The notes under the pieces were generated by a model. That model made no database searches, was not told the origin of the DNA, and was given only the letters and a program-made list of their open reading frames with translations. Shown here piece by piece: positions 29,877-44,102 of a DNA stretch of 62,771 nt. Numbering within the stretch: the first letter of the stretch is position 1; the number at the start of each line of letters is the position of its first letter. The stretch is from a virus. Its lineage: Duplodnaviria > Caudoviricetes. A program made the position numbers and the translations under genes. The stretch spans positions 1 through 62,771 of the IMG/VR virus record IMGVR_UViG_3300036980_000377; one strand, 5' to 3'.

Positions 29877-31688
29877 ATGAATATTCAATTCACGTCGATT
29901 AAAGCGTCCAACTTTAGATCGTTTGAGAACTTCAAACTTGACTTGACTAAAAATGGAGTAACCCTTGTCCAAGGCAAAATTGAAGGTGGATCTGAAACCC
30001 TTGAATCTAATGGTGCTGGTAAGTCTTCCATTTTTTCAGCGATTTCATGGGCGCTATTTGGCAAGTTCCCTCATGTCAGTGGTTCGAAAGTCTCAGGTGA
30101 TAAAGTGGTTCGGCGGGGATCATCTGGTGGTTGTTACGTTACTGCTACATTTCAAGCTGCAGGACAAACCGTTTGTGTCACTCGATATCGCCTTCACGCA
30201 CTTCACGGAGACAAACTCACACTACGAGTAGAGGATAAGGAGGAGACTCAAGCAACAAATTTAAAGACCCAGCAAGTCGTAGAATCTCTACTTGGGATCT
30301 CCTTTGAACTGTTTGTAAATTTAATCTTCGTAACGGAAGCGACAATCAAAGAGTCCTTTGCTTTTGAAACGGATGCCAATCGTAAGAAGATGTTAGTCAG
30401 CGCCCTTCCCCAGTTTCAAACATTTGGTAAAGCTCGAAGTCGTGTCAAAGATTCTCATACTCAGTTCACTGGATTTTCTAGTAAACTTCAGGTAGAGAAG
30501 GATGCCTTCACAAAAGCATTTGAAGAGATGCAAACTGAGGTCATCCCTAACACCTCTCAAATTAACTTTCGTGTCAGTCAGTTGCAGATTGAGATTGCCA
30601 CCCTCAACCAATCTATCAGATCTAACATCAAGGAGTCTGAGGATAATTCACAACGTTTAAGTTCTCTGTGTGTCGAACCAAACGATACTGAGTTGTTGGA
30701 TTCAATTGAGAGTACGCGAAAAGAATTATCTTCTTATAAGCTTTATCATGAATCTGCTAAGTCCGGTTTTAAAAAGTGGGATGATATGGGTACTACGTGC
30801 CCTACTTGTGGTCAATCTATCTCTCACTCCGAGAAAATACAACATGCTCAAACATATAAGGACGAGATCGGAGAATTAGGTCTCCATGTAAATGCTCTAC
30901 AAATTGGACTTGAAGAACTTCGAAAAAAGAAAGCAATCTCAGACGTCAAGGAAGCCGAGGTTCAAAAACTTAAAGATTTAATACGTGCTCGAAAGGAAAT
31001 TGCAAGCCGTTCAATCCAATCTGATACTGCCGCAATCAATGCGAAGAATGCCGAGATCGAACAATTAGGTATTATCCTTCAAAACTTAGATGATGTAAAG
31101 ACCCAGAGTGATAATCAAAAGAAAACAGTCTATGATAAAATTCAAGAGATTGATCAACTACTCGCGGTCGTTAAAAACTTTGAAGGATCTTTGAGTGTTT
31201 GGTTAGATGGTTATGGTCCTCGAGGAGTTTTATCTCTCGCATTAAACCACGTAGTCGAAGTTCTTACAGGTAAAACTAGGAGATGGTTAGAGAGTCTTTG
31301 GCATGAAGGAGCTTCTCTCACATTTGAGTTCGTCGGCGACGATCTATCTAAGATCGAGTCCAAGCTGTACGTTAACCAGCGAGTTGTGGATTTGGAATCG
31401 CTTAGCTCTGGAGAGACGCGAAGGCTCTGCCTTGCGCTCTGTTTCGGACTACGTGAAGCTCTCCAAGAACTCACCGGATGGAAATCTAATCTTCTTATTC
31501 TCGATGAAGTTTTCGACGGACTAGATGGTGTTGGGAGAATCAAAGTATTGAGTGAACTTAAGCAGCTTCTAGATACGAGCGTTTTTGTGATTTCCCAATT
31601 TCCCCAACTTAGTGAAGATATCGATAGAGTAGCGCGTGTACGCTTCTCTAACAACGTGTCTGCGCTTGAAATCCTACATGAGAGGTAA
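29877..31688 (+). CDS. sbcC: SbcC/Rad50-like ATPase
   Basis: NFRSF, NGAGKS, zinc hook CPTC, LSSGE, LLILDE. Confidence 0.9.
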   Translation: MNIQFTSIKASNFRSFENFKLDLTKNGVTLVQGKIEGGSETLESNGAGKSSIFSAISWALFGKFPHVSGSKVSGDKVVRRGSSGGCYVTATFQAAGQTVCVTRYRLHALHGDKLTLRVEDKEETQATNLKTQQVVESLLGISFELFVNLIFVTEATIKESFAFETDANRKKMLVSALPQFQTFGKARSRVKDSHTQFTGFSSKLQVEKDAFTKAFEEMQTEVIPNTSQINFRVSQLQIEIATLNQSIRSNIKESEDNSQRLSSLCVEPNDTELLDSIESTRKELSSYKLYHESAKSGFKKWDDMGTTCPTCGQSISHSEKIQHAQTYKDEIGELGLHVNALQIGLEELRKKKAISDVKEAEVQKLKDLIRARKEIASRSIQSDTAAINAKNAEIEQLGIILQNLDDVKTQSDNQKKTVYDKIQEIDQLLAVVKNFEGSLSVWLDGYGPRGVLSLALNHVVEVLTGKTRRWLESLWHEGASLTFEFVGDDLSKIESKLYVNQRVVDLESLSSGETRRLCLALCFGLREALQELTGWKSNLLILDEVFDGLDGVGRIKVLSELKQLLDTSVFVISQFPQLSEDIDRVARVRFSNNVSALEILHER

Positions 31689-31690
31689 CC

Positions 31691-33037
31691 ATGTCAACTA
31701 TTCCATGGCCCAAGATTCGACCTGATCGCCAAATTCACTCCGCAGAGCAAATCTTAATCGGGAGTCTTCTAATGAACCCTGGGAGACTCACACGGTATGA
31801 GCAGAATATTATTTACCATGAAGAGCCTTTAAATGGCGCTGACTTTGAGCATCAGCAGTGGAAGACTCGTTACTTTTCTATGTGGGGTGGAAAGCTCACC
31901 CACAGCTCGGGACTCTCGTTCATAGTCCCTGAAAATATTTGTGTAAGGTTTAGCTGCGGAACAATCTTAAGTGGTGACACCTCACATTTAATGCCGATGC
32001 TTGATGATTTCGGTCTAGCTAATTGGTTTATGGAAAGTGGAGTAGTCTTAAGTAGCCGCCCTGAAATTTATCTTCCCCTGCCTCCGAGCTGGCGTTCTCA
32101 GAAGGGGGTTATGGAGAAACTTTTTAGTCGATTCGATGCCTTCGCAGACGTTAAAGGATTTCTTTCGATTCAAGATGTTGGTACATTTAAAGATGTTATC
32201 TTTCCAAACGTGATCCCATCTAAGCGATATAAGTTCAAGCATCTCAACGAAGAGATGCACGATGTCTCTAAGACGTCAACCCTGTCAGTCGGAATTCAAA
32301 AAGTAGGGATTAGGCAGGTTCCAATCCCCTTGAATATTCACTTGAAAGATCAAATCCAACCTACGATCGCTAAAGCTTCGATCTATACGGATTTAAGTGA
32401 AGACGTAATGGGCTCTCACCTAAGTAGACTCCTCGAAGTTCTTGATAAGGTTTCGTGCGATGTAGTCAGCACAGATTTACAAACAATGGAGTTGTATCTT
32501 AACACCTTAAAGGAAAGACTCAATGCCACGAACGCGTATTTAAAATTACGGTTTCCAATACTTCTTTCACAGCTCGCCCCTGTGACAGGAATTCCAGGAC
32601 ATATTCGATATGAATGTACCCTCTCAGGTGAGATTGATAGTGGTGATCTCAAAGTCTTCAAAACAATTCGTGTACCATATATGTCTGCTTGCATCTGTTC
32701 TAAAAGCATTTCACTCTTTAACGCCCACTGTCAACGATCGTTTGCTGATGTTACGCTTCTTCTAAAAGATAGCGACGTCCCATTTGAAGAACTTGTTGAG
32801 ATCGTTGAACATTCATGCTCCGCACCTATCAGAGCCACCTTAAAGAGAGAAGATGAAAAGTTCATTACTGAACAGGCGTACGACAGGGCAGGCTTTGTAG
32901 AAACAATCAGCCGACACATTGCCAAGCAACTGGACAATTTAAGGGTTAGAGGCTGGTTAGTTGTTTGTGAGCATGAAGAAAGTTTACACCAACATAATGC
33001 AGTCGCTCTCATCCGAGGCGGTGAGTATATTCCCTGA
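31691..33037 (+). CDS. folE2: GTP cyclohydrolase IB (FolE2) fused to an N-terminal degenerate LAGLIDADG-like domain
   Basis: C-terminal IQKVGI, GSHLSRL, SACICSK, AHCQRS, LKREDEK, FVE, EESLHQHNA; N-terminal ILIGSLL, GLANWFMESG, IPSKRYKF. Confidence 0.85.
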   Translation: MSTIPWPKIRPDRQIHSAEQILIGSLLMNPGRLTRYEQNIIYHEEPLNGADFEHQQWKTRYFSMWGGKLTHSSGLSFIVPENICVRFSCGTILSGDTSHLMPMLDDFGLANWFMESGVVLSSRPEIYLPLPPSWRSQKGVMEKLFSRFDAFADVKGFLSIQDVGTFKDVIFPNVIPSKRYKFKHLNEEMHDVSKTSTLSVGIQKVGIRQVPIPLNIHLKDQIQPTIAKASIYTDLSEDVMGSHLSRLLEVLDKVSCDVVSTDLQTMELYLNTLKERLNATNAYLKLRFPILLSQLAPVTGIPGHIRYECTLSGEIDSGDLKVFKTIRVPYMSACICSKSISLFNAHCQRSFADVTLLLKDSDVPFEELVEIVEHSCSAPIRATLKREDEKFITEQAYDRAGFVETISRHIAKQLDNLRVRGWLVVCEHEESLHQHNAVALIRGGEYIP

Positions 33038-33051
33038 TATAGGAGTTAACA

Positions 33052-33396
33052 ATGGAAAGCGTATTCTCTAATGAAGGCCTGGCTGAACAGCCGAATTTTG
33101 CTCCCGCAGCCCCCGTTCTAAATTCTGTTACTTTCGATGGCCGCGTCGCTAGAGTGTCTCTCACACTACCCGCAACAGATGCGGATGGTGGATCCCTTAC
33201 GGGTCTTGCAGGATGTAATGTCTTTTATAAAGACAGCTCATTTGCAGGTTCCACACCCGACGCAGAAAGAGCAGCTGGAACTCCTGTTGTCTCAGTTCCA
33301 GTTACTGATAGTCTCGCAGGTACTGACGTAGTAGTCTCTGTACCCGATTTGAAGTTTGGGATGCTTTACTACTTCGTTGCAACCTGTAACGATTAA
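33052..33396 (+). CDS. fibronectin type III-like protein with permuted terminal strand
   Basis: PATDADGGSLTGLAGCNVFY...LKFGMLYYFVATCND; ESVFSNE at the N-terminus; AGGAG RBS. Confidence 0.7.
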   Translation: MESVFSNEGLAEQPNFAPAAPVLNSVTFDGRVARVSLTLPATDADGGSLTGLAGCNVFYKDSSFAGSTPDAERAAGTPVVSVPVTDSLAGTDVVVSVPDLKFGMLYYFVATCND

Positions 33397-33404
33397 TCAC
33401 TCTG

Positions 33405-33518
33405 ATGGAAAGTCAATTCTCTAATCAGAGAACTGCACTATTCGTCATCGTACCATCTCCGTGGTCGAGAATTTGGATTTGGATCCAGCGTCTTTGGCGC
33501 TGGATATTGTCTTGGTAG
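33405..33518 (+). CDS. 37-aa peptide with FN3 terminal-strand motif and Trp/Arg-rich tail
   Basis: Translated by hand: MESQFSNQRTALFVIVPSPWSRIWIWIQRLWRWILSW. Confidence 0.6.
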   Translation: MESQFSNQRTALFVIVPSPWSRIWIWIQRLWRWILSW

Positions 33519-33599
33519 GATGCTTTGAAACGCTTGGCGGCGAGAAACCATATGAACTGTTACTTGACACCTATTTTTTTAATCAGCCAATTTTTTCAA

Positions 33600-33648
33600 C
33601 CTTTTAATCATCCCAATTGAGCCATTATAATTATAATAAAAAATTATT
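33600..33648 (+). repeat. direct repeat copy 1 (promoter-like, tandem TATAAT)
   Basis: CCTTTTA.TCATCCCAATTGAGC.ATTATAATTATAATAAAAAATTAT, nearly identical to 36241-36288. Confidence 0.8.
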
Positions 33649-33723
33649 ACTTTTTGAACCTTGAACCTGCCGCCAACTAGTTCTTAAAAGCATCCTCCAG
33701 AAAATTCCTTCTGGGTGGTGTAA

Positions 33724-34218: not shown

Positions 34219-34293
34219 GCGGGATTAACTCAATTGGTAGAGTGCTAGACTGCCAGTCTGGTAGTACGGGTTCAAGTCCTGTATCCCGCTCCA
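34219..34293 (+). tRNA. tRNA-Gly(GCC)
   Basis: Cloverleaf; CTAGA-CTGCCAG-TCTGG; encoded CCA. Confidence 0.92.
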
Positions 34294-34299
34294 CCTTTA

Positions 34300-34376
34300 T
34301 GCGGGTTAGCCTAGGGGTCTAAGGCGTGTGGCTCATAACCACAAAATCATGAGTTCGAATCTCATACCCGCTACCA
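34300..34376 (+). tRNA. tRNA-Met(CAT), initiator-like (1:72 mismatch)
   Basis: TGTGG-CTCATAA-CCACA; T1/T72; encoded CCA. Confidence 0.88.
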
Positions 34377-34490
34377 TTTTCATCACGATCGATTGTCCCA
34401 ATATCTGGAACAGATTGTTTCGTATATCAAGAGTAAAGGCTGCTTCCCAATTCTGGGGTAGCGGTAAACTTTTAGGTCACTTCTTTGGTT

Positions 34491-34670
34491 ATGAAAACAG
34501 GTCGAGTCAGATTCAAAAGATTCCTTGATAAAGTTCTTAAGTGTGAAGTCTGTAATCACTCTATGATTGTCAACCGCATGCCAAGTAGAAACAGACGTTC
34601 AGGACATATTAAACATATGTACTGTCCTAAGTGCCAAGAAACTACAGCGCATGTAGAGCAACCAATTTAA
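34491..34670 (+). CDS. bL33-like zinc-ribbon protein
   Basis: CEVC...KHMYCPKCQETTAHVE resembles the L33 pattern KKYCPxCxxHTxHxE. Confidence 0.55.
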   Translation: MKTGRVRFKRFLDKVLKCEVCNHSMIVNRMPSRNRRSGHIKHMYCPKCQETTAHVEQPI

Positions 34671-34685
34671 GGGGGGGGATAGTCG

Positions 34686-34952
34686 ATGTTCGTGTGGGTG
34701 ATCGTTGAGCCGATCTTAATGATTCTCGCCGCGATTTTTATTATCACGCAAGTCGCGGTGCCCGCGTGGAAAAACACGCCAACCTTTCCCCTCATCCGCC
34801 AAGTTCTCAAACGCCGTCGAGTGGCAGAAGAGAAGATGCGGGTGCTTAAAGCTACTAAAGAAGTTCAAAAGTTGGAGAAGTCCGCAGCAGTTTTAGAAGC
34901 GGAACTCCATGAAAAGCCCAAACGCCGTAAACCCACTAACAAAGGAGAGTGA
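34686..34952 (+). CDS. membrane protein upstream of SPFH gene
   Basis: N-terminal TM segment followed by coiled coil. Confidence 0.65.
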   Translation: MFVWVIVEPILMILAAIFIITQVAVPAWKNTPTFPLIRQVLKRRRVAEEKMRVLKATKEVQKLEKSAAVLEAELHEKPKRRKPTNKGE

Positions 34953-36160
34953 TATTTATGCTTAGACGGCCCGTTCTACTAGTGGTCAGTGTCTTACTGG
35001 TCATCCTGTTCTTCTCTTGCGCGGGAATGCTCTTTGAAAATGTCCCCGCAGATCAGATCGCGGTTATCCAATCACCGATCGCTGGAACTCTTGACTGGTA
35101 TCCTGATCAGGGTTTAAAGTGGCAAGGCTTTGGCAAAGTCACTTACTACCCTAAATCCGTCCAATATTGGTTCTCCGCGTCGGGGGATCAGGGAAAGAAA
35201 GTTGACGAAAGCATTAAGATTCGGTTCAATGACGGCGGTGACGGACGAATCTCAGGCTCCGTGCGTCTTGACTTACCTCGAGATAAAGAACACTTGGATT
35301 TAATCCATACTAAGTTCGGGAGTGCGGAAGCTTTGATGCATGAGCTCGTTCGTCCTCTCTTCGAGAAAGCTATTTATATGAGTGGCCCAATGATGTCGTC
35401 AGCCCAGTCTTACGCTGAACGGCGGAATCAGCTCATTGGCTACATTGAAGACCAAGCATCTCGTGGCATCTACCGTACCACCATGAAGGATGTTCGGGGT
35501 AAAGATCTTATCACCGGCGCCGAGAAGACGATCACTGTCGTCGAGTTGGTTATGGATCCTAAATCCCCCAACGGTATCGCTCGAGAGGAAGAGTCTCCAC
35601 TATCTTCATTTGGGTTGAGGGCTTATAACCTTTCAATCAACGCCATTAATTACTCCCCGATCATCGACAAGCAGATCGCCACCCAGCAAGAAGCTTTCAT
35701 GAGCGTACAAACGGCCATGGCTGAAGCTAAGCAGGCGGAGCAGAGAGCTCTAACGGCAGAGCAACAGGGACGAGCAAATGCTGCTACGGCTAGATGGGCG
35801 CAGGAAGTTATCAAAGCCAAGTTTGTCACTGAAGCTGAGCAGCATCTTAAAGTGGCAGAACTCGATGCCCAAACGGCCGCCCAACGTAAGAAAGAGCAAA
35901 TCCTTTTGGGTGAAGGTGAATCTCAACGGCGTCAACTGCTCATGGCCGCGGATAACCAATTGGAGATCAAGCTCGCAGCTTGGAAGGATGTTATGTCGAA
36001 GTTTGCCGACCAGATCGGCAAACAACAATGGGTGCCTCAAATCCAGCTGGGCTCTGACGGAAAATCTGGGGGTAGCGCAGCGATGGACTTGATCACACTC
36101 TTAACCGCTAAAACGGCTAAGGATCTCAACTTGGATCTTTCGCCGACGAAAAAGCAGTAA
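34949..36160 (+). CDS. SPFH/band-7 domain membrane protein
   Basis: N-terminal TM, IRFNDGG, Ala/Glu/Gln-rich coiled coil. Confidence 0.85.
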   Translation: MIFMLRRPVLLVVSVLLVILFFSCAGMLFENVPADQIAVIQSPIAGTLDWYPDQGLKWQGFGKVTYYPKSVQYWFSASGDQGKKVDESIKIRFNDGGDGRISGSVRLDLPRDKEHLDLIHTKFGSAEALMHELVRPLFEKAIYMSGPMMSSAQSYAERRNQLIGYIEDQASRGIYRTTMKDVRGKDLITGAEKTITVVELVMDPKSPNGIAREEESPLSSFGLRAYNLSINAINYSPIIDKQIATQQEAFMSVQTAMAEAKQAEQRALTAEQQGRANAATARWAQEVIKAKFVTEAEQHLKVAELDAQTAAQRKKEQILLGEGESQRRQLLMAADNQLEIKLAAWKDVMSKFADQIGKQQWVPQIQLGSDGKSGGSAAMDLITLLTAKTAKDLNLDLSPTKKQ

Positions 36161-36182
36161 AAGGTTACTACCTCGTGTCGAA

Positions 36183-36221
36183 GGGGAATCTCCTCTGGCT
36201 CAGGGGATTCCCCGATTTTTT
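36183..36221 (+). terminator. rho-independent terminator
   Basis: GGGGAATCTCCT...AGGGGATTCCCC followed by a T run. Confidence 0.8.
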
Positions 36222-36240
36222 ATGCATCCATTATTTTCCA

Positions 36241-36288
36241 CCTTTTATTCATCCCAATTGAGCAATTATAATTATAATAAAAAATTAT
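36241..36288 (+). repeat. direct repeat copy 2 (promoter-like)
   Basis: Near-identical to 33600-33648; lies between a terminator and ATG 36290. Confidence 0.8.
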
Positions 36289-36289
36289 C

Positions 36290-36571
36290 ATGAAATGTCT
36301 CCGCTGCGGGTACTGTTGTATTCATTATAATGTTATTATAGTAAAGCCGGGATATAAACGTATCACTAGGGCATCATTAATATACAAGCCGGGTGGTCAG
36401 CATTGTCCTCATTTAGTCTTTAACAAAGCTATAGCAACATGCGTGATTCACGATAAACCATTTTATAAGCGAACTCCTTGCTTCGAGTTTACTCAAATCG
36501 AAGCTTCACCTGAAGATGATTGTAGAATTGGAGCCGGGATTAGAGATAATAGGATCAAGCTAAATGCATAA
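36290..36571 (+). CDS. YkgJ-like cysteine-cluster protein
   Basis: CLRCGYCC...CPHL...CVIH. Confidence 0.7.
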   Translation: MKCLRCGYCCIHYNVIIVKPGYKRITRASLIYKPGGQHCPHLVFNKAIATCVIHDKPFYKRTPCFEFTQIEASPEDDCRIGAGIRDNRIKLNA

Positions 36572-36776
36572 TTGGGTAGAAAGTTTAGTAACATGGCTAA
36601 TAACTTCTCTTGCTGTTCTTCAATGTATTGCCGTGGCGGTAGGTTTATATCAAGAAAACAAAATTGCGGAGTGTAAAGCTGCAGTAGCAATACTTGGTAC
36701 ACTTGACCTTCATTTGATAAGGATTCTTTGGATTGGACATCTTGGACTTCAAAAGGAGGGGCACGAATGGCTCTAA
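36564..36776 (+). CDS. small membrane protein
   Basis: Hydrophobic ORF. Confidence 0.45.
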   Translation: MHNWVESLVTWLITSLAVLQCIAVAVGLYQENKIAECKAAVAILGTLDLHLIRILWIGHLGLQKEGHEWL

Positions 36777-37069
36777 TAGGTTTTTGCTACTCAGTGGCTC
36801 AATTCTTTTTAGGTGTTTTCTTTATTCTCGCGTGTGTAGTTGCGCTCGTAGTTGGAGTGATCGGCCTAGTATTGTTATGTACTCCTTTCCCGTACTTTCC
36901 GATTCATCGGGAATTTCTTATCCGGTTTTGGACTTTTGTAGTGACAGCAAGCTTCTTTGCAAACGACTATGGACATAAGTCCGAGTGGGATAAAGTTAAG
37001 AGTGAAATGAGACAACTTTCTTCTTGGCAGACCGCCAAGAATGTCATACACTTAACTAAAGAAGATTAA
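36767..37069 (+). CDS. membrane protein
   Basis: AGGAGG RBS; hydrophobic N-terminal half. Confidence 0.55.
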   Translation: MALIGFCYSVAQFFLGVFFILACVVALVVGVIGLVLLCTPFPYFPIHREFLIRFWTFVVTASFFANDYGHKSEWDKVKSEMRQLSSWQTAKNVIHLTKED

Positions 37070-37072
37070 CGT

Positions 37073-37148
37073 CGGGATGTGGCGCAGTTGGTAGCGTGCA
37101 TGCTTTGGGAGCATGATGTCGGGGGTTCAAGTCCCTCCATCCCGACCA
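37073..37148 (+). tRNA. tRNA-Pro(TGG)
   Basis: CATGC-TTTGGGA-GCATG; CCA. Confidence 0.93.
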
Positions 37149-37156
37149 TTAATTGA

Positions 37157-37230
37157 GCGGGTGTAATTCAATGGTAGAAGAACAGCCTTCCAAGCTGTTA
37201 GTGTCGGTTCGAATCCGATCATCCGCTCCA
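37157..37230 (+). tRNA. tRNA-Gly(TCC)
   Basis: ACAGC-CTTCCAA-GCTGT; CCA. Confidence 0.92.
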
Positions 37231-37380
37231 AGAGGGTAGTATGATTTGGAACTGGCATAATAAAATCAGTTTTCTTAAAAGCGGACTTCGAATCATCGGG
37301 TTTATATTTTTGCCCTTCAACCTTTTCCCCTCAGCTGTCTTATTAGTATTAGCTGAAGTGTTTGGAGTTTTGGAAGAGTT

Positions 37381-38064
37381 ATGGTGAAAGTTGTCTTCTG
37401 CGTTCCAGGGCAAAGTTTTTCAAACACGTTTTTACAGTGCTGGACCGATTTACTTTTAGCGTGTCCACAACTTAAAGTGCAACCAATTTGCCCCGTATTT
37501 CCATATATTAGCAATGTTTATATTTCACGTAACGTTTGCTTGTTAGGGCAGCCTGAGAGGGGTATTGAACAAAAACCCTTTCAAGGAAAAATTGCTTATG
37601 ACTATTTGATGTGGATTGATTCAGATAGTGAATGGACTATTCAAGATTTTAAACGTCTTTTAGATATATTAGAAGCAAACAAACATATGCACATCTTATC
37701 GGGTGTCTATATGCATGGAAATGGAGAAACATTAGTAACTCTTGACGACGAAGGGGATTTATTATTACCTATAGATCTTGATGGAATGCCCGAAGTAGTA
37801 AGAATGCCCCATACTGGAATGGGGTTTATGTTAGTAAGAAGTGGTGTATTTGAATATATTAAATACCCTTGGTTCGTCCCGATACTTCCAACGGACGAAC
37901 AAGGTAATGTAATTGATATAATGGGAGATGACATTGCTTTTTGTGAGCGGGCAAGACAAGTAGGATTTATTACTTGGATTGCAACAACGGTTCGTATTGG
38001 TCATGAGAAATCAAGAATCTTGAGGGTGCCAAATGAGCGAGCAAAAATTATATGTTCACAGTAA
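37381..38064 (+). CDS. GT-A fold glycosyltransferase-like protein
   Basis: SRN, YLMWIDSD, TGMGFMLV, YPWF, GDDIAFC, IGHEK. Confidence 0.8.
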   Translation: MVKVVFCVPGQSFSNTFLQCWTDLLLACPQLKVQPICPVFPYISNVYISRNVCLLGQPERGIEQKPFQGKIAYDYLMWIDSDSEWTIQDFKRLLDILEANKHMHILSGVYMHGNGETLVTLDDEGDLLLPIDLDGMPEVVRMPHTGMGFMLVRSGVFEYIKYPWFVPILPTDEQGNVIDIMGDDIAFCERARQVGFITWIATTVRIGHEKSRILRVPNERAKIICSQ

Positions 38065-38236
38065 GTGCTGTAACTCGCACTGGGAATTATGCTATGAAGA
38101 TGGAGAGTGGTCGCTCGAATGTGAAGGATGTGGAAAAAGTGCGGGCTCAACATTTAAAGTGGAGGGACCATCTCTTGAAGGCTGTCAATGTGAGACCTGC
38201 AAGGCAGAAGGAAGTAAACCTCCTTCACGACACTAA
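38033..38236 (+). CDS. small Cys-rich protein
   Basis: GAGGG RBS; CC, CEGC, CETC. Confidence 0.55.
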   Translation: MSEQKLYVHSKCCNSHWELCYEDGEWSLECEGCGKSAGSTFKVEGPSLEGCQCETCKAEGSKPPSRH

Positions 38237-38432
38237 GTGTCCTCTTTGTGGTAAGCCCCAAAGAGTGAATCAAACATATACGACAACTATTTGTGAAGGT
38301 CAAGAGTGTACACGATGTAGGGGAAAGTTTGTCTCGATATATATTTTAGGTTTTTGTAATTTATGTTCAAACAGAGTTGAATGTTTACCTTTTCCAACGA
38401 TTGAATTTTTATACGACGCTTCTGTGGAGTAG
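38052..38432 (+). CDS. Cys-rich paralog family member (true start probably near 38190)
   Basis: CPLC...CTRC...CNLCSNRVECL. Confidence 0.6.
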   Translation: MFTVSAVTRTGNYAMKMESGRSNVKDVEKVRAQHLKWRDHLLKAVNVRPARQKEVNLLHDTKCPLCGKPQRVNQTYTTTICEGQECTRCRGKFVSIYILGFCNLCSNRVECLPFPTIEFLYDASVE

Positions 38433-38497
38433 CTCAATGGCAGAGTCCCCGACTGTTAATCGGGTTGTTGAAGGTTCGAGCCCTTCCTCCACAGCCA
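38423..38497 (+). tRNA. tRNA-Asn(GTT)
   Basis: CCCGA-CTGTTAA-TCGGG; CCA. Confidence 0.92.
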
Positions 38498-38751
38498 GTT
38501 GGAACATTAAAACAGGTCTAGCTGGAGTTAGTTCATATCCGCTAGTTTACGTGCGAGACTGTCCATATTGTAATTACGAATTGGACATAGAGCAATTCTG
38601 GTTTGATGGACCCATTAAATGTGTCTTAGAGCTTTGTCGGTATTGCGAGCGAGAATTCATCGCGGTCTTTATAAAAACGGCATGTACAATTTGTGAACAC
38701 CGAATTGATTGCCTCTGTTGGAAGATGGTCTATATAGAGGAGACCAAGTGA
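38437..38751 (+). CDS. Cys-rich paralog family member (start uncertain: ATG inside tRNA-Asn or GTG 38551)
   Basis: CPYC...CRYC...CTICEHRIDCL. Confidence 0.6.
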   Translation: MAESPTVNRVVEGSSPSSTASWNIKTGLAGVSSYPLVYVRDCPYCNYELDIEQFWFDGPIKCVLELCRYCEREFIAVFIKTACTICEHRIDCLCWKMVYIEETK

Positions 38752-38984
38752 CTGAGTGGGAGTGCCCAATTTGCAACTCCCAGAAATGGGAACCAACAAA
38801 AGAACTTTGTGAATTTTCAACCATGGGATTTGGTAAAAGTGATCCCTCGGCGTGTATCAGACTCAAATGTCATAAGACTGGAAAATTTTACTATTTAGTA
38901 TTTAACAAGGTTGAATGTCTCGTATGTACTAATCCAGAGTATTGCGAGCCGTACCCAAAACAATTTAAGTTCCACAGTTATTAA
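38748..38984 (+). CDS. Cys-rich paralog family member
   Basis: GAGGAG RBS, GTGA overlap; CPIC...CLVCTNPEYC. Confidence 0.6.
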   Translation: MTEWECPICNSQKWEPTKELCEFSTMGFGKSDPSACIRLKCHKTGKFYYLVFNKVECLVCTNPEYCEPYPKQFKFHSY

Positions 38985-38985
38985 A

Positions 38986-39062
38986 GGGGCCCTAACTCAA
39001 TTTGGAAGAGTGTCGCCTTTGCACGGCGGAAGTTGAGGGTTCAAGTCCCTTGGGCTCCACCA
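38986..39062 (+). tRNA. tRNA-Ala(TGC)
   Basis: G3:U70 acceptor pair; TTTGCAC loop; CCA. Confidence 0.92.
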
Positions 39063-39107
39063 GATTTAAACAACTGTTTTACATGGTACTACTTATTCCA
39101 TTTTTAT

Positions 39108-39183
39108 GGTGGGTGTAGCCATTAGGTAAAGGCACTGGGATGTGGCCCCAGTAATGTGAGTTCGAGTCTCATCACTCACCCCA
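39108..39183 (+). tRNA. tRNA-His(GTG)
   Basis: G-1; CTGGG-ATGTGGC-CCCAG; CCA. Confidence 0.9.
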
Positions 39184-39186
39184 TAC

Positions 39187-39397
39187 GGGAGGGAGAAGGA
39201 TCTAAGTACGGAAGGGCTATACACGAATTGCCTAATGGCTCAGATAAGGCCTTTGGAAGGCTTTCAATCTCAGCGTCAGTAGCTGAAGCTTTTGACCTTC
39301 CAGCCTTTCTCAAACGTTAAGAGTTACGACCTCCGGGCGATATCAAAACTTACCACTTCGCACTTAGCTCTTCTCGAAAGGGTTCTTCAACCTCCCA
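39187..39397 (+). ncRNA. 6S-RNA-like long hairpin with central bubble
   Basis: Nested helices GAGAAGG/TCTTCTC, CTAAGT/ACTTAG, GAAG/CTTC, then a bubble, then AAGGC/GCCTT, TGGAAGG/CCTTCCA, TCAGC/GCTGA. Confidence 0.55.
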
Positions 39398-39419
39398 TCA
39401 CTTTTAAAGGAGAGAGACC

Positions 39420-39626
39420 ATGGCTGAAAAAGGAAAAAAAGGTAAAGAGGTTAAAGCGGTTGAGGAGCCCAAAAAGTCTTATGGGCGTGTGCGCCCTTGT
39501 AATTGTGAACACACCTTTCAGGATAAGGAGTACGGTAAAGGTATGAGGCTTCACACTGAGGCGAAAGGGGGCTCCGTAGACCAGGTTAAATACCGCTGCA
39601 CAGTCTGCCTGTCAATGAAAAGCTAA
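39420..39626 (+). CDS. small zinc-binding phage protein
   Basis: AAGGAG RBS; CNCEHTFQDKEYGKGMRLH...RCTVC. Confidence 0.7.
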   Translation: MAEKGKKGKEVKAVEEPKKSYGRVRPCNCEHTFQDKEYGKGMRLHTEAKGGSVDQVKYRCTVCLSMKS

Positions 39627-39719
39627 AAATGTTTTATAACTTTTTTATGGCCGGATCAATACTCTTAGTAATTACTCTAGGAGTATACGGCTACACAAAA
39701 TGTTAGGGGGTTTAAGTTT

Positions 39720-40238
39720 ATGGTCATCGCCGAAGCACTAAACGAAATTAAAGACTTGGAGAAGCGTCGTCGGGATATCCAAACCAAGCTTCGTGGAAAC
39801 ATTTATATCCTCCCAGATCTCGAGGAAGGAGAGAAGCCGGATTCTTTGGAAGTTCAAATGGCTGAGCTTCAAGAAGTCGTCGCTAAAATCTCCGACTTGA
39901 GAATGCGTCTTATCAATACGAACGTGGCAACTAAAGTAGAGGTTGCGGACGCTGGGGGATTAAAAGTTACTATGACGTTAGTAAAGGCAATCAAGCACAT
40001 TGAGAATTGTCGGTACTATGAGACACAACTTAATGAGATTGCTGACGCTATGGAGAATAAAGGTTCCCGCTTCTATGATCGCGGCAACTACATGTCTCAA
40101 GGTGAGCCTATCAAGTTGGCTCCCAATTTTCAAACAACGTCCAAAGTCCTTAGACTGAGATCTCAGGCACACCGCGAAGATGCCCGCCGGACGGAACAAG
40201 CTTTAATTAAGGCGAATTGGAGTACGCCGATCGTATGA
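39720..40238 (+). CDS. coiled-coil protein, DIP1984-like
   Basis: MxIAEAL N-terminus, INTN, IKANWST C-terminus. Confidence 0.6.
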   Translation: MVIAEALNEIKDLEKRRRDIQTKLRGNIYILPDLEEGEKPDSLEVQMAELQEVVAKISDLRMRLINTNVATKVEVADAGGLKVTMTLVKAIKHIENCRYYETQLNEIADAMENKGSRFYDRGNYMSQGEPIKLAPNFQTTSKVLRLRSQAHREDARRTEQALIKANWSTPIV

Positions 40239-40252
40239 GCGAAGAGAAAAAA

Positions 40253-40328
40253 TGGGGAGTAGCTCAACTGGTAGAGCGCCGTCCTTTGGAGTCGGATGTT
40301 GGAGGTTCAAGTCCTTCCTCTCCAGCCA
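40253..40328 (+). tRNA. tRNA-Gln(TTG)
   Basis: U1-A72; CTTTGGA loop; CCA. Confidence 0.9.
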
Positions 40329-40518
40329 TTATCATTACAACTTTAAGACCAGAGTTCCTTGATTGTATTCCTCAAGACTCAATAGGTGTACTTGAAAAGG
40401 AGTTCGGAAGATTCAAAACTAAGTGGATATCCATTCTACCGATCACAAAAGCGATGTTAGACGAAGGGATTAAACCCGGTGATTTATTTACATCTGGATA
40501 TTTTTATATGGATTAAAA

Positions 40519-40595
40519 GCCAGCGTAGCTCAGCAGGCCAGAGCGGAAGTTTTGTAAACTTCGGGTCGGGGGTTCGATTCCTCTCGCTGGCTCCA
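40519..40595 (+). tRNA. tRNA-Thr(TGT)
   Basis: GAAGT-TTTGTAA-ACTTC; CCA. Confidence 0.92.
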
Positions 40596-40606
40596 CCCCA
40601 ATAACA

Positions 40607-40789
40607 ATGTTATCAAACTTGAAAATACAATGTCACCATTGCTTACGTGAGAGGGTAACCTTACGTGAGCATATGCAGTTGGGTGGAATCTGTCCCGCGT
40701 GTAATAAATACATAGTGATAGACTTTGAAAATGTACCGTTAGATGAACTTATAAAGGCGATCATTAATTTAGAAACTGGGCCGGTGTAA
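40607..40789 (+). CDS. small zinc-ribbon protein
   Basis: CHHC...CPAC. Confidence 0.5.
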   Translation: MLSNLKIQCHHCLRERVTLREHMQLGGICPACNKYIVIDFENVPLDELIKAIINLETGPV

Positions 40790-40853
40790 CCAAATGGCCG
40801 GGTGTTAGGTTGCAACCCTAACTACGCAGGTTCGATTCCTGTCGCCGGCTCCA
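40780..40853 (+). tRNA. tRNA-Cys(GCA)
   Basis: TTAGG-TTGCAAC-CCTAA; U73; CCA. Confidence 0.9.
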
Positions 40854-40865
40854 AAAGGAACTATT

Positions 40866-41060
40866 ATGCTATGTCAGAGTTGCGAATTGCGCGAAGCTAC
40901 TCAGTCCTTCGCGCAGGATGAAATGAGTTTCATTCATGGAATGTCTCAACAGTGGTGTGATCACTGCGTTATCTCTACTCAACTAGATTTCGCGCGAAAG
41001 TCCGCTGAAAGAATTCCCGAGCTTGAAGAAGCGTTACGTAAATTAAATGAGCCCGAGTAG
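40866..41060 (+). CDS. small zinc-finger protein
   Basis: AAGGA RBS; CQSC...CDHC. Confidence 0.55.
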   Translation: MLCQSCELREATQSFAQDEMSFIHGMSQQWCDHCVISTQLDFARKSAERIPELEEALRKLNEPE

Positions 41061-41136
41061 CCGAATAGGTATAGGCGTCTGGTTGAGGGCCAGATACTCC
41101 TGGAGTGTGTAGGTTCAAGTCCTATCTCGGGCACCA
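41051..41136 (+). tRNA. tRNA-Leu(GAG)
   Basis: TCTGG-TTGAGGG-CCAGA; long variable arm; CCA. Confidence 0.9.
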
Positions 41137-41152
41137 ATATTATGAGGATTTA

Positions 41153-41413
41153 ATGCCCCTGCTACATTGCAATTCCTGTCACCATGAATGGGAAGGTCGA
41201 CTTAACTCTAAGTGTGACTGGTGTGGAGACTCGGGAAATGTCCTGGAAGAGAAGACTTCTTTGGAAAGGTTTATGGAGGGGGACTTAAAGGGTTTTATTG
41301 AGCGTTGGAAAAAGGAACGCTTGAATATCAAACCCGAACCAATTTTTGGTGAGACTATCAGAGGTGCAATCCGAATCGTTCGGGACTTCAAGGCGAGACG
41401 TAAAAAGGATTAG
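41153..41413 (+). CDS. small zinc-ribbon protein
   Basis: GAGG RBS; CNSCHHEWEG...CDWC. Confidence 0.6.
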   Translation: MPLLHCNSCHHEWEGRLNSKCDWCGDSGNVLEEKTSLERFMEGDLKGFIERWKKERLNIKPEPIFGETIRGAIRIVRDFKARRKKD

Positions 41414-41498
41414 CTCGGGTGGTGGAATCAGGCAGACACATCTGGTTTAAGCCCAGATGCCGAAAGGCGTGCGGGTTCAACTCCCGCCTCGAGCACCA
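41413..41498 (+). tRNA. tRNA-Leu(TAA)
   Basis: TCTGG-TTTAAGC-CCAGA; variable arm; CCA. Confidence 0.92.
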
Positions 41499-41813
41499 AT
41501 GAAAAGAAAACATAAACTACATACGATGGAGTGGTGGTTTGTTAAGAGCAGACAAATCCCGATTCATTTTAAATGTCCATGTTGTAGTAAAAGGATTGAA
41601 TACAACGTGAACGTTTTTTGGAGCCACAGTATGTTGAATGTTTGCCCACATTGCTCTCAAGAATTTAACCTTTGCTTTGATTGCGGGTGCCCATGTCGAG
41701 ATCGGCTTGATTGTTTAACGATTCCAAGCGTTGGATCCATTTGGGTTGATCCCGTCTTTATTCATTATATATGCGATGATCCGTGGATTAAAAAACAGCA
41801 GGCTCTCAAGTAG
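41499..41813 (+). CDS. Cys-rich paralog family member
   Basis: ATG directly after the tRNA CCA; CPCC...CPHC...CPCRDRLDCL. Confidence 0.65.
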   Translation: MKRKHKLHTMEWWFVKSRQIPIHFKCPCCSKRIEYNVNVFWSHSMLNVCPHCSQEFNLCFDCGCPCRDRLDCLTIPSVGSIWVDPVFIHYICDDPWIKKQQALK

Positions 41814-42052
41814 TGCAAATAAGAGTCTATTGCCCCCACTGTGAAGAGTTAGAAGTTCGCAACTTCGACTTTCGCGGGTGGATGAAAAACGAAAAATGCT
41901 TTCAAGTTTATTGTTTAAGAACCCGAATTCCATATAAAATAGTTTTTGATCGAGTCCATTGTCTTATATGTAACTGTGAGGATAAAAAAGTGAGCCCAGC
42001 GAAGAAAACCAAAAAACAGTCCCGTAAGTGGGCTCGTAACTCAACAGGTTAG
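41813..42052 (+). CDS. Cys-rich family member (divergent)
   Basis: CPHC...YKIVFDRVHCLIC, similar to 38748 and 48111. Confidence 0.55.
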   Translation: MQIRVYCPHCEELEVRNFDFRGWMKNEKCFQVYCLRTRIPYKIVFDRVHCLICNCEDKKVSPAKKTKKQSRKWARNSTG

Positions 42053-42105
42053 AGTACATGACTTTTAATCATGAAGCGGAGGTTCGAGTCCTCCCGGGCC
42101 TACCA
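42030..42105 (+). tRNA. tRNA-Lys(TTT)
   Basis: CATGA-CTTTTAA-TCATG; CCA. Confidence 0.92.
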
Positions 42106-42120
42106 ATAAGGAATTAAGAA

Positions 42121-42369
42121 ATGCGACTCAATGTGTGTAAGAAATGTCCAGATAGAGACGCGGAGTGTCTTTCTGAGGGAGAGTGTAGACACAAATTTTG
42201 TGTCGTATGTGCATTTCACCGCCGAAAGCTTTTCTTTTGGCATAAATGTTGCTCACCCCAGCTTTGCCATGCAATAACTGGACGAGCTAAAATGAGTTGT
42301 CATGAAGCACGAAAGTGGAGTTCAAATTGTGGCCATGAAGGTAACCTTTTTAAGTTGAGAGGAACTTAA
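42121..42369 (+). CDS. Cys-rich protein
   Basis: AAGGA RBS; CKKCPDRDAECL. Confidence 0.55.
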   Translation: MRLNVCKKCPDRDAECLSEGECRHKFCVVCAFHRRKLFFWHKCCSPQLCHAITGRAKMSCHEARKWSSNCGHEGNLFKLRGT

Positions 42370-42560
42370 TGAAATCCCCATATGTAGGCACATTTGTCGG
42401 TTGGACTGACAAAGCAATTGAGTGTTTGGTTCAAGCAAGTGGTGTAGCTCGAGCTGCTCGTGATGATGAGGTAGAGGCTCTTATAGACCAGGCAAGAAAC
42501 TTGCTTCATAAAGCTAGGCAAAAAGCAAGCGATCAACCTGAATCAAAAAAGGTCCTGTAG
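42369..42560 (+). CDS. hypothetical protein
   Basis: GAGG RBS; TAATG coupling. Confidence 0.55.
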   Translation: MKSPYVGTFVGWTDKAIECLVQASGVARAARDDEVEALIDQARNLLHKARQKASDQPESKKVL

Positions 42561-42625
42561 CTCAACGGTTAGAGCAGACTCCTTATAAGGGTCAGACTTA
42601 GGTTCAACTCCTAACGGGACTACCA
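42551..42625 (+). tRNA. tRNA-Ile(TAT)
   Basis: GACTC-CTTATAA-GGGTC; A73; CCA. Confidence 0.88.
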
Positions 42626-42626
42626 A

Positions 42627-42702
42627 GCCCCCGTAGTTCAGAGGATAGAACAACTGCCTTCTAAGCAGTAAGTCGCAAGTTCGAGTCTTGCCGGGGGTGC
42701 CA
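42627..42702 (+). tRNA. tRNA-Arg(TCT)
   Basis: ACTGC-CTTCTAA-GCAGT; CCA. Confidence 0.92.
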
Positions 42703-42708
42703 AATATT

Positions 42709-42787
42709 GAGCCCACATGTTCCAAGGACTTGGCGAGTTGGTCTCCAAAACCGACTGTGGTAGGTTCGATTCCTACTGGGTTCGCCA
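42709..42787 (+). tRNA. tRNA-Trp(CCA) with atypical D arm
   Basis: TTGGT-CTCCAAA-ACCGA; G73; CCA. Confidence 0.82.
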
Positions 42788-42788
42788 T

Positions 42789-42862
42789 AGTCCCGTAGCT
42801 CAATGGTAGAGCGCGCGGCTGATAACCGTGATACACAAGTTCGACTCTTGTCGGGACTACCA
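42789..42862 (+). tRNA. tRNA-Ile(GAT)
   Basis: CGCGG-CTGATAA-CCGTG; CCA. Confidence 0.92.
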
Positions 42863-42872
42863 AATTTTTATT

Positions 42873-43088
42873 ATGGGAAAGTCATACACAGGAAGACCCT
42901 TATGTGATGTCTACTGGCACTTCAGAGATGGACTGCCTTGGAGAAGACATTACAAACCATATTACAAGCCGAGTAAGTGGTTTAAGAAGTTACGCATCGC
43001 CAGAGTCAGAGCTCAAGAGAAGCAAGCTCTTAGGAGGGGACGAGAACTTCCCGTTAATAGGAAGGTTGATATTTGGAATTGGAATTAG
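42873..43088 (+). CDS. small basic protein
   Basis: KPSKWFKK...RAQEKQALR...WNWN. Confidence 0.55.
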   Translation: MGKSYTGRPLCDVYWHFRDGLPWRRHYKPYYKPSKWFKKLRIARVRAQEKQALRRGRELPVNRKVDIWNWN

Positions 43089-43172
43089 GAGGAGTGGCCG
43101 AGTGGTTAAAAGCGGCGGGCTGTAAACCCGCTCTCTCTGAGTTCGGAGGTTCGAATCCTTCCTCCTCCACCA
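43088..43172 (+). tRNA. tRNA-Tyr(GTA)
   Basis: GCGGG-CTGTAAA-CCCGC; variable arm; CCA. Confidence 0.92.
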
Positions 43173-43176
43173 CTTT

Positions 43177-43476
43177 ATGACAACAAGAATTAATGAACCA
43201 CATGGCACTTGGTATTGGGAGGCCACGGCCAAGAATAAATCGTATGAATGGAATCCTCCCGGCTTCCCTAGTACCCAACGACAGTGCTTTTCGTGGAAGT
43301 GGAAGACGAATTTAAAACAGAACTGCGAGACCTGCAAATTACGAGTCGAGTGCCTAACAGTTGAAAGCTCGAAGTGCTCGATGATTTTAGAAACGCGGAT
43401 CACTTTGAGTGAAATTACTGGTATGGTAGATGAGTACGAAGGCTTTAAAAGATTTCCATATGAGGTGAAAGAATGA
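43177..43476 (+). CDS. protein with CxxC-x5-C motif
   Basis: CETCKLRVECL. Confidence 0.6.
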   Translation: MTTRINEPHGTWYWEATAKNKSYEWNPPGFPSTQRQCFSWKWKTNLKQNCETCKLRVECLTVESSKCSMILETRITLSEITGMVDEYEGFKRFPYEVKE

Positions 43477-43646
43477 TCTGGATGTGCAAAGTGTGCAAAG
43501 GAAAAGAGTCCGCTTGGAGTTTACCTGGAGAGGAAGAGGTTATTCTTTATTGTAATGAATGTAAAGAGGAGAGACCGTTTGAGCGGTGGAAGCATGGTCC
43601 ATCTAAAGAAGCTGAAACGGAAGATGTTTTTCTGATAGAATAAATT

Positions 43647-43734
43647 GGAGGGATGGCCGAGTACGGCTTAAGGCGGCGGTCTTGAAAACCGCAGGGTGGA
43701 AGCCCCGTGGGTTCGAATCCTACTCCCTCCGCCA
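43647..43734 (+). tRNA. tRNA-Ser(TGA)
   Basis: GCGGT-CTTGAAA-ACCGC; variable arm; G73; CCA. Confidence 0.92.
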
Positions 43735-43739
43735 ATCTT

Positions 43740-43814
43740 CGTGGAAGTACAACGGACAAGGCTCTGGCTCGTAATCAATCGAGGTGGGAAGCGAGTGGTT
43801 GACCAACTTCCACG
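43740..43814 (+). ncRNA. unassigned 75-nt structured RNA between tRNA genes
   Basis: 9-bp closing stem CGTGGAAGT/ACTTCCACG; internal CAAC/GTTG and CTCG/CGAG. Confidence 0.4.
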
Positions 43815-43832
43815 TTAGTTAAATGAAAATAT

Positions 43833-43910
43833 GGCGAGATAGCTCAGTTGAGGTAGAGCGCGGGCCTGAAGAGTCCGGCGGCCTTGGTTCAACTCCAAGT
43901 CTCGCCACCA
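43833..43910 (+). tRNA. tRNA-Phe(GAA)
   Basis: CGGGC-CTGAAGA-GTCCG; CCA. Confidence 0.9.
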
Positions 43911-43918
43911 GCTTATGC

Positions 43919-44005
43919 GGAGAGTTGGCCGAGCGGTTGATGGCAACGGTTTGCTAAACCGTCGAGGTAATACTCACGCAGGTTCGAATCCTGCACTCTC
44001 CGCCA
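43919..44005 (+). tRNA. tRNA-Ser(GCT)
   Basis: ACGGT-TTGCTAA-ACCGT; variable arm; CCA. Confidence 0.92.
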
Positions 44006-44018
44006 ACTAATAGTCATT

Positions 44019-44102
44019 GGGAGTGTGGCGGAATGGCAGACGCGCTAGCCTTAGGAGCTAGTAGAGAAATCTGTGGGGGTTCAAGTCCCCCCTCTCCCAC
44101 CA
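44019..44102 (+). tRNA. tRNA-Leu(TAG)
   Basis: CTAGC-CTTAGGA-GCTAG; variable arm; CCA. Confidence 0.92.

Follow-up and report, generated by a model that had tools for sequence, protein, structure and literature searches.

Chaperone-usher and type V pili, TasA, and archaeal threads and cannulae are known cases of donor-strand complementation. To our knowledge, all of these systems assemble outside the cytoplasm. Here we describe a pair of small adjacent genes, open reading frames 1 and 2 (ORF1 and ORF2), from a 62,771-bp virus record in IMG/VR (IMGVR_UViG_3300036980_000377, completeness ~40% according to CheckV); the whole of this stretch is referred to as the window. ORF1 encodes a protein of fibronectin type III (FN3) kind that ends after strand F and has a motif resembling the last strand, G, at its N-terminus, and ORF2 encodes a 37-aa peptide that opens with a copy of that motif. 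The two genes very probably form a genuine module, and the reading of ORF1 as a donor-strand protein is partly supported.

The chaperone-usher pilins (Fim/Pap) resemble the ORF1 model in being Ig-like sandwiches without a G strand, each completed by the N-terminal extension of the next subunit, which runs antiparallel to strand F and gives an open head-to-tail chain; the donor strand of the PapE-PapK pair is described in PMC13278184. These pilins carry a Sec signal peptide and are assembled in the periplasm, whereas ORF1 is without a leader on inspection and is presumably cytoplasmic, and no chaperone or usher genes were found among the immediate neighbors scanned in the window and the bacterial loci. 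The module considered here differs further from the chaperone-usher pilins in being of FN3 type, in consisting of two genes only, and in having as its putative cap an amphipathic peptide of 34-40 aa. The terminator and anchor role that we propose for ORF2 is that of PamR from the Pam pilus of candidate phyla radiation bacteria, a membrane-anchored protein with an extra N-terminal β-strand predicted to enter the last subunit (PMC13278184). PamR is exported, has two FnIII domains and a C-terminal transmembrane (TM) helix, and acts extracellularly with membrane-anchored chaperones, whereas ORF2 is a peptide of 37 aa that has an amphipathic helix; the two showed no sequence relation, none having been searched for.

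Two further comparisons concern the fold. In the TasA fibers of Bacillus subtilis, a globular β-sandwich polymerizes by strand donation without an usher (10.1101/2022.03.14.484220). TasA differs in being secreted, extracellular and of another fold family, and profile searches of the PDB with ORF1-type queries gave no match. Tandem fn3 arrays, such as those of the long proteins P0005 and P0012 introduced below, share the family motifs DxDGGxLTGL, YYFxVxAxD and NES, and the predicted chain would resemble them; in the arrays all domains belong to one polypeptide with G following F, whereas the ORF1 units are separate 114-aa chains, cut in the F-G loop. In the titles and abstract openings returned by full-text literature searches, no paper dealt with a phage or cytoplasmic FN3 domain that is permuted or split and has its donor strand at the N-terminus.

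ORF1 and its family

The features of ORF1 in the window are as follows.

33041-33045, + strand: Shine-Dalgarno-like AGGAG, 6 nt ahead of the ORF1 ATG
33052-33396 including the stop, + strand: ORF1, 114 aa, from MESVFSNE to YYFVATCND; permuted FN3-type protein with strand order G'-A-B-C-C'-E-F
33052-33099, + strand: ORF1 residues 1-16, N-terminal arm with the ESxFSNE motif; predicted donor strand
33100-33393, + strand: ORF1 residues 17-114, FN3 core of strands A to F, with YYFVATCND at its end and no G strand

An earlier note on this DNA had described the 114-aa protein as FN3-like, stopping just before the usual last strand, and as carrying the motif of that strand at its N-terminus instead. 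Both descriptions hold, the first by an indirect link through profile matches to fn3 arrays and the A-F coverage of the structural matches, the second by exact sequence and coordinates and by conservation in the family. A word-based search gave three relatives of ORF1 of 114-115 aa and 66-75% identity, all of which start with MESxFSNE and end with YYFVATCND, and the N-terminal motif is invariant in four close relatives. A profile made from ORF1 and the three relatives (A1) was searched against 1.84 billion representatives at a cutoff of E ≤ 1e-3 and gave 45 matches, 30 of them small proteins of 105-133 aa that align over their full length. All 30 end within a few residues after strand F. The start S-x-[FL]-[SG] is present in 19 of 33 aligned family rows, counted by eye. 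The family to which ORF1 belongs is one of ~30 small unnamed proteins that end after strand F; ten look-ups of family clusters gave no name beyond "hypothetical protein."

The other 15 matches are long proteins with several matched stretches each, and the five that were scanned all carry Pfam fn3 domains. P0005 is matched by the A1 profile in 11 stretches (E 2e-36) and scores 2.5e-88 against Pfam fn3; P0012 and P0018, also matched, score 4.2e-50 and 1.5e-77. In the tandem fn3 relatives, an ES...P-x-x-P stretch forms the G strand and the linker between domains, and because the same stretch in ORF1 matches it, ORF1 reads as one period of a tandem FN3 array with its frame shifted by one strand. 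The spacing between ES and the Pro motif is 16 residues in the tandem relatives versus 13 in ORF1. One relative, P0034 (394 aa), has an ABC-transporter ATPase domain (ABC_tran, 1.2e-22) followed at residues 297-394 by an ORF1-like A-F domain that ends in ...FAAACAD and has no donor arm; it could be an acceptor-only fusion.

A monomer model of ORF1 computed with AlphaFold2 (AF2) from a 33-row family alignment reached a predicted local distance difference test score (pLDDT) of 91.8; an earlier model from four sequences had been poor (pLDDT 62.9, weak fold matches only). VIA-align placed many FN3 domains on the better model at Z 8-9.6, among them 2haz (Z 9.3, root mean square deviation 2.5, 84 aligned). 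Residues 15-114 of the model span approximately the first 83 of the ~100 residues of single FN3 domains, as in 2e3v_C (8-90 of 101) and 3d1m_D (826-908 of 99), that is, strands A-F without G. The top Foldseek rows were all FN3, with a probability of 1.00 but E ≥ 0.011. The order A-B-C-C'-E-F-G of seven strands in one chain is not what ORF1 has, as it ends after F and its G-like motif lies at residues 2-8. ORF1 is thus an FN3 protein by profile homology and fold, not by strand order or Pfam gathering score.

Searches of named families gave little. Pfam has no family for ORF1 at E ≤ 0.1, and its fn3 profile does not match; over 33 family members, fn3 matched one (E 0.063) and NCBIfam one (choice_anch_T, E 0.0047, with no other match), and PADLOC matched none at E ≤ 0.01. 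PHROGs gave no match for ORF1, ORF2 or the homologs at loci L007 and L013 described below. Searching the PDB by sequence with the A1 and A3 profiles gave rows only at E ≥ 0.18, tblastn of ORF1 against 50,697 cultured-phage records gave no match, and ORF1 relatives were absent from the viral contigs scanned with ORF1-based queries. The N-terminus of ORF1 is polar and acidic (MESVFSNEGLAEQ) with no hydrophobic leader, and inspection of ORF1 and ORF2 (no signal-peptide program was run) revealed no signal peptide. Because of this polar, acidic start and because an A-F domain is fused behind the ATPase in P0034, a cytoplasmic setting for ORF1 is plausible.

The ORF2 peptide and the recurrence of the gene pair

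ORF2 and the features within it are as follows.

33405-33518 including the stop, + strand: ORF2, 37 aa, from MESQFSNQ to WSRIWIWIQRLWRWILSW
33405-33428, + strand: ORF2 residues 1-8, MESQFSNQ, a copy of the ORF1 N-terminal strand motif
33462-33515, + strand: ORF2 residues 20-37, cationic amphipathic Trp/Arg helix, putative membrane-surface binder
33483-33505, + strand: 10-bp terminator-like hairpin within the 3' half of ORF2 (-19.1 kcal/mol, z -3.2)

The 37-aa ORF with the same N-terminal motif had been reported in the earlier note, and its coordinates and sequence proved exact. ORF2 begins 8 nt after the TAA of ORF1, in frame +2 relative to it, and the 8-nt gap contains no Shine-Dalgarno site for ORF2. 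ORF1 and ORF2 both open with a 21-nt start pattern, ATGGAAAG-N4-TTCTCTAAT, which occurs exactly twice in the window against an expectation of 0.03 (at least two occurrences in 0 of 100 shuffles).

The tail of ORF2 has a hydrophobic moment of 0.63, a mean hydrophobicity of 0.21 and a net charge of +3, and 1.1% of shuffles score as high. Its best 19-residue Kyte-Doolittle mean, 0.98, is under the usual transmembrane range. Across the loci, the peptide tails have hydrophobic moments of 0.45-0.63 and net charges of +3 or +4, and none has transmembrane-like hydropathy; on these values, they look like membrane-surface helices and not like anchors that span the bilayer.

We compared 11 distinct loci, namely the window, L001, L003, L005 and L007-L013. 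L002 and L004 are duplicates of the window and L003, and L006, a weak match inside a 417-aa frame, was left out. The A4 sub-alignment served as the locus query in place of A3 because the latter was too diverse. In 8 of the 11 loci (the window, L001, L003, L005 and L007-L010), the next gene clearly opens with a copy of the start of the ORF1 homolog. L001, a 2.6-kb metagenome contig whose ORF1 is 75% identical, shares the stop and the gap and likewise has an ORF2 of 37 aa. On L003, a contig binned to a Desulfobacca metagenome-assembled genome, a 34-aa ORF in frame +1 starts 10 nt after an ORF1 homolog of 54% identity, and in four further genomes of the same order (L005, L008, L009 and L010) a 40-aa ORF follows after 12 nt in frame 0. 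The partners in seven of the eight clear loci are small peptides; the eighth, in L007, is a 159-aa protein with hydrophobic helices, and it overlaps the stop of the ORF1-like gene by one base. In most of the 11 loci, the next gene combines the motif with a membrane-seeking part. The pair recurs in phage, metagenome and bacterial loci, with frames of +2 (the window and L001), +1 and 0 and with ORF1-ORF2 gaps of 8, 10 or 12 nt after TAA or TGA stops.

We also asked whether the two N-termini co-vary by lineage. N-terminal pairing scores were 25, 31, 25, 23 and 11 for matched pairs and 3 to 26 for mismatched ones, so the ranges overlap, and lineage-specific co-variation is not supported; the pairs share one general motif. 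The only pair-specific case is L007, where both proteins have W in place of the F of the others.

An alignment of the peptides from the window, L001 and L003 retains M-[ED]-S-x-F-S-N-Q, S-x-WSR, RLW-W and the final W, with codons that differ. Between the window and L001, codons 1-19 of ORF2 show seven synonymous and three nonsynonymous changes, and variable sites in the four closely related bacterial copies divide 10/5/19 among the three codon positions, with third positions ahead in both halves. The start motif is kept through synonymous changes in L001 and through different codons in L003 and the L005 group. An RNA-level element was considered as the cause of the repeated start and rejected, because the motif survives with different codons. 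We conclude that ORF2 is very probably coding.

Predicted strand exchange and proposed mechanism

The earlier note had proposed that each ORF1 subunit donates its N-terminal strand to a neighbor. A model of three ORF1 copies gave interaction scores (ipSAE, interaction prediction score from aligned errors) of 0.68, 0.68 and 0.72, whereas the best of three controls reached 0.12; at least 97% of contacts agreed between runs, and the partner pLDDT was at least 86. In calibration, 20 of the 30 proteins solved as homo-pairs passed the mark of the tool, compared with 1 of the 23 solved as single chains; this calibration holds only roughly here because three copies and a custom alignment were used. 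The scored copy contacts its neighbor by residues 1-16 only, all 16 of which touch it; the neighbor contributes residues 100-114, in strand F, as well as positions in strands A, B and C. The pairings are 3 with 112/113, 6 with 109/111 and 8 with 107/109, so that the arm starts at the F-G end, runs antiparallel to F and takes the canonical place of G. Contact between copies is non-reciprocal, as would suit an open chain whose end leaves a single groove free.

Strand exchange is in this way borne out in part, as the model puts the arm in the G position of a neighbor. The condition under which the proposal would fail, a stable monomer completed by its own arm, is still compatible with the AF2 monomer, in which the arm has a pLDDT of 85-89. 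On the models, insertion in trans is only marginally favored over insertion in cis. That the N-termini of ORF1 and ORF2 address one and the same groove is probable. An open-ended polymer is somewhat doubtful, and a membrane tether is an evenly poised matter.

The mechanism that we propose would run as follows. ORF1 would be a cytoplasmic FN3-type A-F domain with its G strand at the N-terminus on a short Pro-rich linker. Because the arm appears too short for a comfortable fold-back onto its own domain, it would insert into another copy of ORF1, entering the open groove antiparallel to strand F. The product would be a head-to-tail chain like a tandem FN3 array that has been nicked in every F-G loop. 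ORF2 would be made by translational coupling right after ORF1, its motif would fill the single open groove at the end of the chain, and its cationic amphipathic helix would keep the chain on the cytoplasmic side of the cell membrane. In distant relatives, larger membrane proteins with the motif on a cytoplasmic N-terminus would take the role of ORF2, and the module may serve to organize or time a membrane-acting partner. Taken as a whole, this mechanism, in which ORF1 copies complete one another by strand donation and ORF2 or a larger membrane protein acts as the plug, has in our estimate just short of an even chance of being right.

Genomic setting, alternatives and implications

Two genes stand ahead of ORF1 in the window, whose long ORFs all lie on the + strand.

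29877-31688, + strand: SbcC-like gene, upstream of ORF1
31691-33037, + strand: FolE2-like gene, directly upstream of ORF1

In the phage, ORF1 and ORF2 end this SbcC/FolE2 operon, which is of early or middle type. The FolE2-type GTP cyclohydrolase (31691-33037) matches Pfam GCHY-1 over residues 189-439 (6.4e-61) behind a 188-aa N-terminal extension, for which a weak LAGLIDADG_2 match stands alone (E 0.037). The FolE2-like gene was the sole neighbor gene tried against the 50,697 phage records and gave three weak records only. After ORF2, the intergenic stretch 33519-33723 shows higher conservation between the window and L001 than does ORF1, 30% of whose bases differ; TTGACA-like and TATAAT-like boxes can be seen by eye there, before the small genes that come next and the tRNA block, and a consensus promoter scan called no + strand promoter in 33519-33723. 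The 21 tRNA genes lie on the + strand at 34219-44102 and include an Ile tRNA with anticodon tat, a large number for a phage fragment of 40% estimated completeness. Downstream of the module, at 34949-36160, lies the gene for a 403-aa SPFH/Band 7-like membrane protein (phrog_11908, 2e-45; Pfam Band_7, E 0.0017).

Of the genomes searched, 8 of 83 in the Desulfobacca-like order and 4 of 401 in a sample of the phylum have an ORF1 match. Within the order, a ThiF-family gene precedes the pair, and the downstream neighbors vary; RecO and tRNA genes also adjoin the bacterial loci. Two loci have phage-like surroundings. In L007 (974-3282, minus strand), the ORF1-like gene comes after the one for a Phage-tail_3 protein (5.5e-06). 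In L013 (806-3206, minus strand), an SLT transglycosylase, an Amidase_2 protein, the ORF1-like protein, a 142-aa protein that combines a TM segment with a coiled coil, and an overlapping lipoprotein-like ORF of 139 aa follow one another, a layout that resembles a phage lysis cassette with a spanin pair.

Several observations weigh against the donor-strand mechanism or against a part of it. DNA was available for 11 loci out of ~30 family clusters, and three sequence groups account for seven of the clear cases. The 142-aa partner in L013 matches the motif no better than mismatched pairs do, the next gene in L011 is an overlapping two-helix membrane ORF without the motif, and in L012 nothing lies within 90 nt downstream. 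The arm pLDDT of 85-89 was obtained for ORF1 alone, and because the arm is this well scored in the monomer it may dock in cis. The three-copy score, which is a model confidence, may partly reflect likeness to tandem FN3 structures, since many of these have been solved. As to ORF2, codons 20-37 show six nonsynonymous and no synonymous changes between the window and L001, the second half of the gene overlaps the hairpin at 33483-33505, and a search of the protein database with its 42-aa stop-to-stop frame gave no candidate, which means only that no gene caller recorded one. Finally, the contexts of the pair, with SbcC/FolE2 in the phage, ThiF in bacteria, and tail or lysis genes in two prophage-like loci, reveal no function.

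Four other explanations can be set against these data. That ORF1 and ORF2 are one gene, broken by an indel, as the earlier note had allowed, or joined by programmed frameshifting, would give a seven-strand FN3 domain with a C-terminal tail, and the read-through sequence (strand F, five residues, then ESQFSNQ) does resemble an ordinary F-G hairpin. Against this, DNA contigs from two other studies (X2 and X3), which are independent assemblies, cross 33390-33405 without an inserted or deleted letter, by our own reading there is no slippery heptamer at the junction, and all 30 small family members stop after strand F. Because the loci show three different frame relations, gaps of three lengths and either of two stop codons, a broken gene and a programmed frameshift are both ruled out, and the single-gene explanation, already contradicted, retains next to no probability. 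It is very improbable, if less so than a single gene, that ORF2 is non-functional in the phage, being the untranslated 3' end of the operon with its terminator and a start motif left over from partial duplication. The hairpin (weaker in L001, at -12.9 kcal/mol and z -1.1), the lack of a Shine-Dalgarno site, the purely nonsynonymous changes in the second half and the lack of an ORF2-like database entry would all fit such a relic, as would contigs from RNA libraries of two samples of one study (X5 and X6). These contigs cover only 33261-33516 and 33289-33512 (the missing cover outside 33261-33516 carries no information), bridge the 3' end of ORF1 and ORF2, and end 7-11 nt past the hairpin, at or just before the TAG of ORF2 (33516-33518), where DNA contigs continue. 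Their ends are a weak hint of a transcript end near the hairpin and not proof of transcription; if that 3' end is real, some transcripts might lack the stop codon of ORF2. Speaking for a translated ORF2, the peptide is kept in L003 and the L005 group in other codons and frames and without a hairpin at an equivalent position, third-position variation dominates both halves of the bacterial copies, and distant loci carry the motif on larger membrane proteins.

The main rival accepts two genes and a groove, and we hold it to be possible though rather unlikely. ORF1 would then be a monomeric or small-oligomeric receptor or antidote, its own arm an autoinhibitory pseudo-ligand, and its real ligand the N-terminus of a membrane-active partner that is sequestered, chaperoned or timed in an antiholin-like manner. 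The placement of the arm in the AF2 monomer fits this account, the partner is a cationic amphipathic peptide of a kind able to perturb membranes, the pair in L013 follows SLT and Amidase_2 genes in a lysis-cassette-like layout, and a binder encoded first with a coupled small partner second is a common antidote order. The three-copy model speaks against it, having picked insertion in trans (0.68 versus 0.12 for the best control), as do the lack of a PADLOC or PHROG family match and an arm and linker that are three residues shorter than in tandem arrays, which would strain a canonical fold-back. A chain that is a virion or cell-surface fiber, to which the anchoring to the virion suggested in the earlier note would belong, is improbable. 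FN3 and Ig-like domains often decorate phage particles, the ORF1-like gene of L007 follows a Phage-tail_3 protein, and feature matches in the Atlas include tail-tip J Ig-like clusters, but ORF1 and ORF2 have no signal peptide, and the pair in the window ends the SbcC/FolE2 operon and not a structural one. Because the same pair lies beside ThiF, RecO and tRNA genes in bacterial chromosomes and in an early or middle operon in the phage, a virion role is unlikely.

We therefore return to donor-strand complementation between ORF1 copies as the best-supported account. By sequence, the module visibly appears to derive from ordinary tandem FN3 arrays through a move of the chain break by one strand. 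The membrane-acting partners and the tail and lysis genes in two loci suggest a role at the membrane. In its broadest and most tentative form, our proposal is that of a chaperone-free intracellular donor-strand polymer, built of single FN3 units and capped or nucleated at the inner membrane face by a micropeptide with the donor strand, or by a holin- or spanin-like protein with that strand on its cytoplasmic tail, that would act as a portable scaffold of phages and bacteria and may time or site a membrane event such as lysis. If true, this would be the smallest donor-strand system, with one 114-aa subunit and one 37-aa plug and without an export signal, chaperone or usher. If the chain forms, it would represent a compact natural snap-together protein polymer with a defined membrane anchor and an example of a multidomain array evolving into a self-assembling one, and it would provide a handle on ~30 unnamed clusters of small proteins in sediment phages and bacteria.

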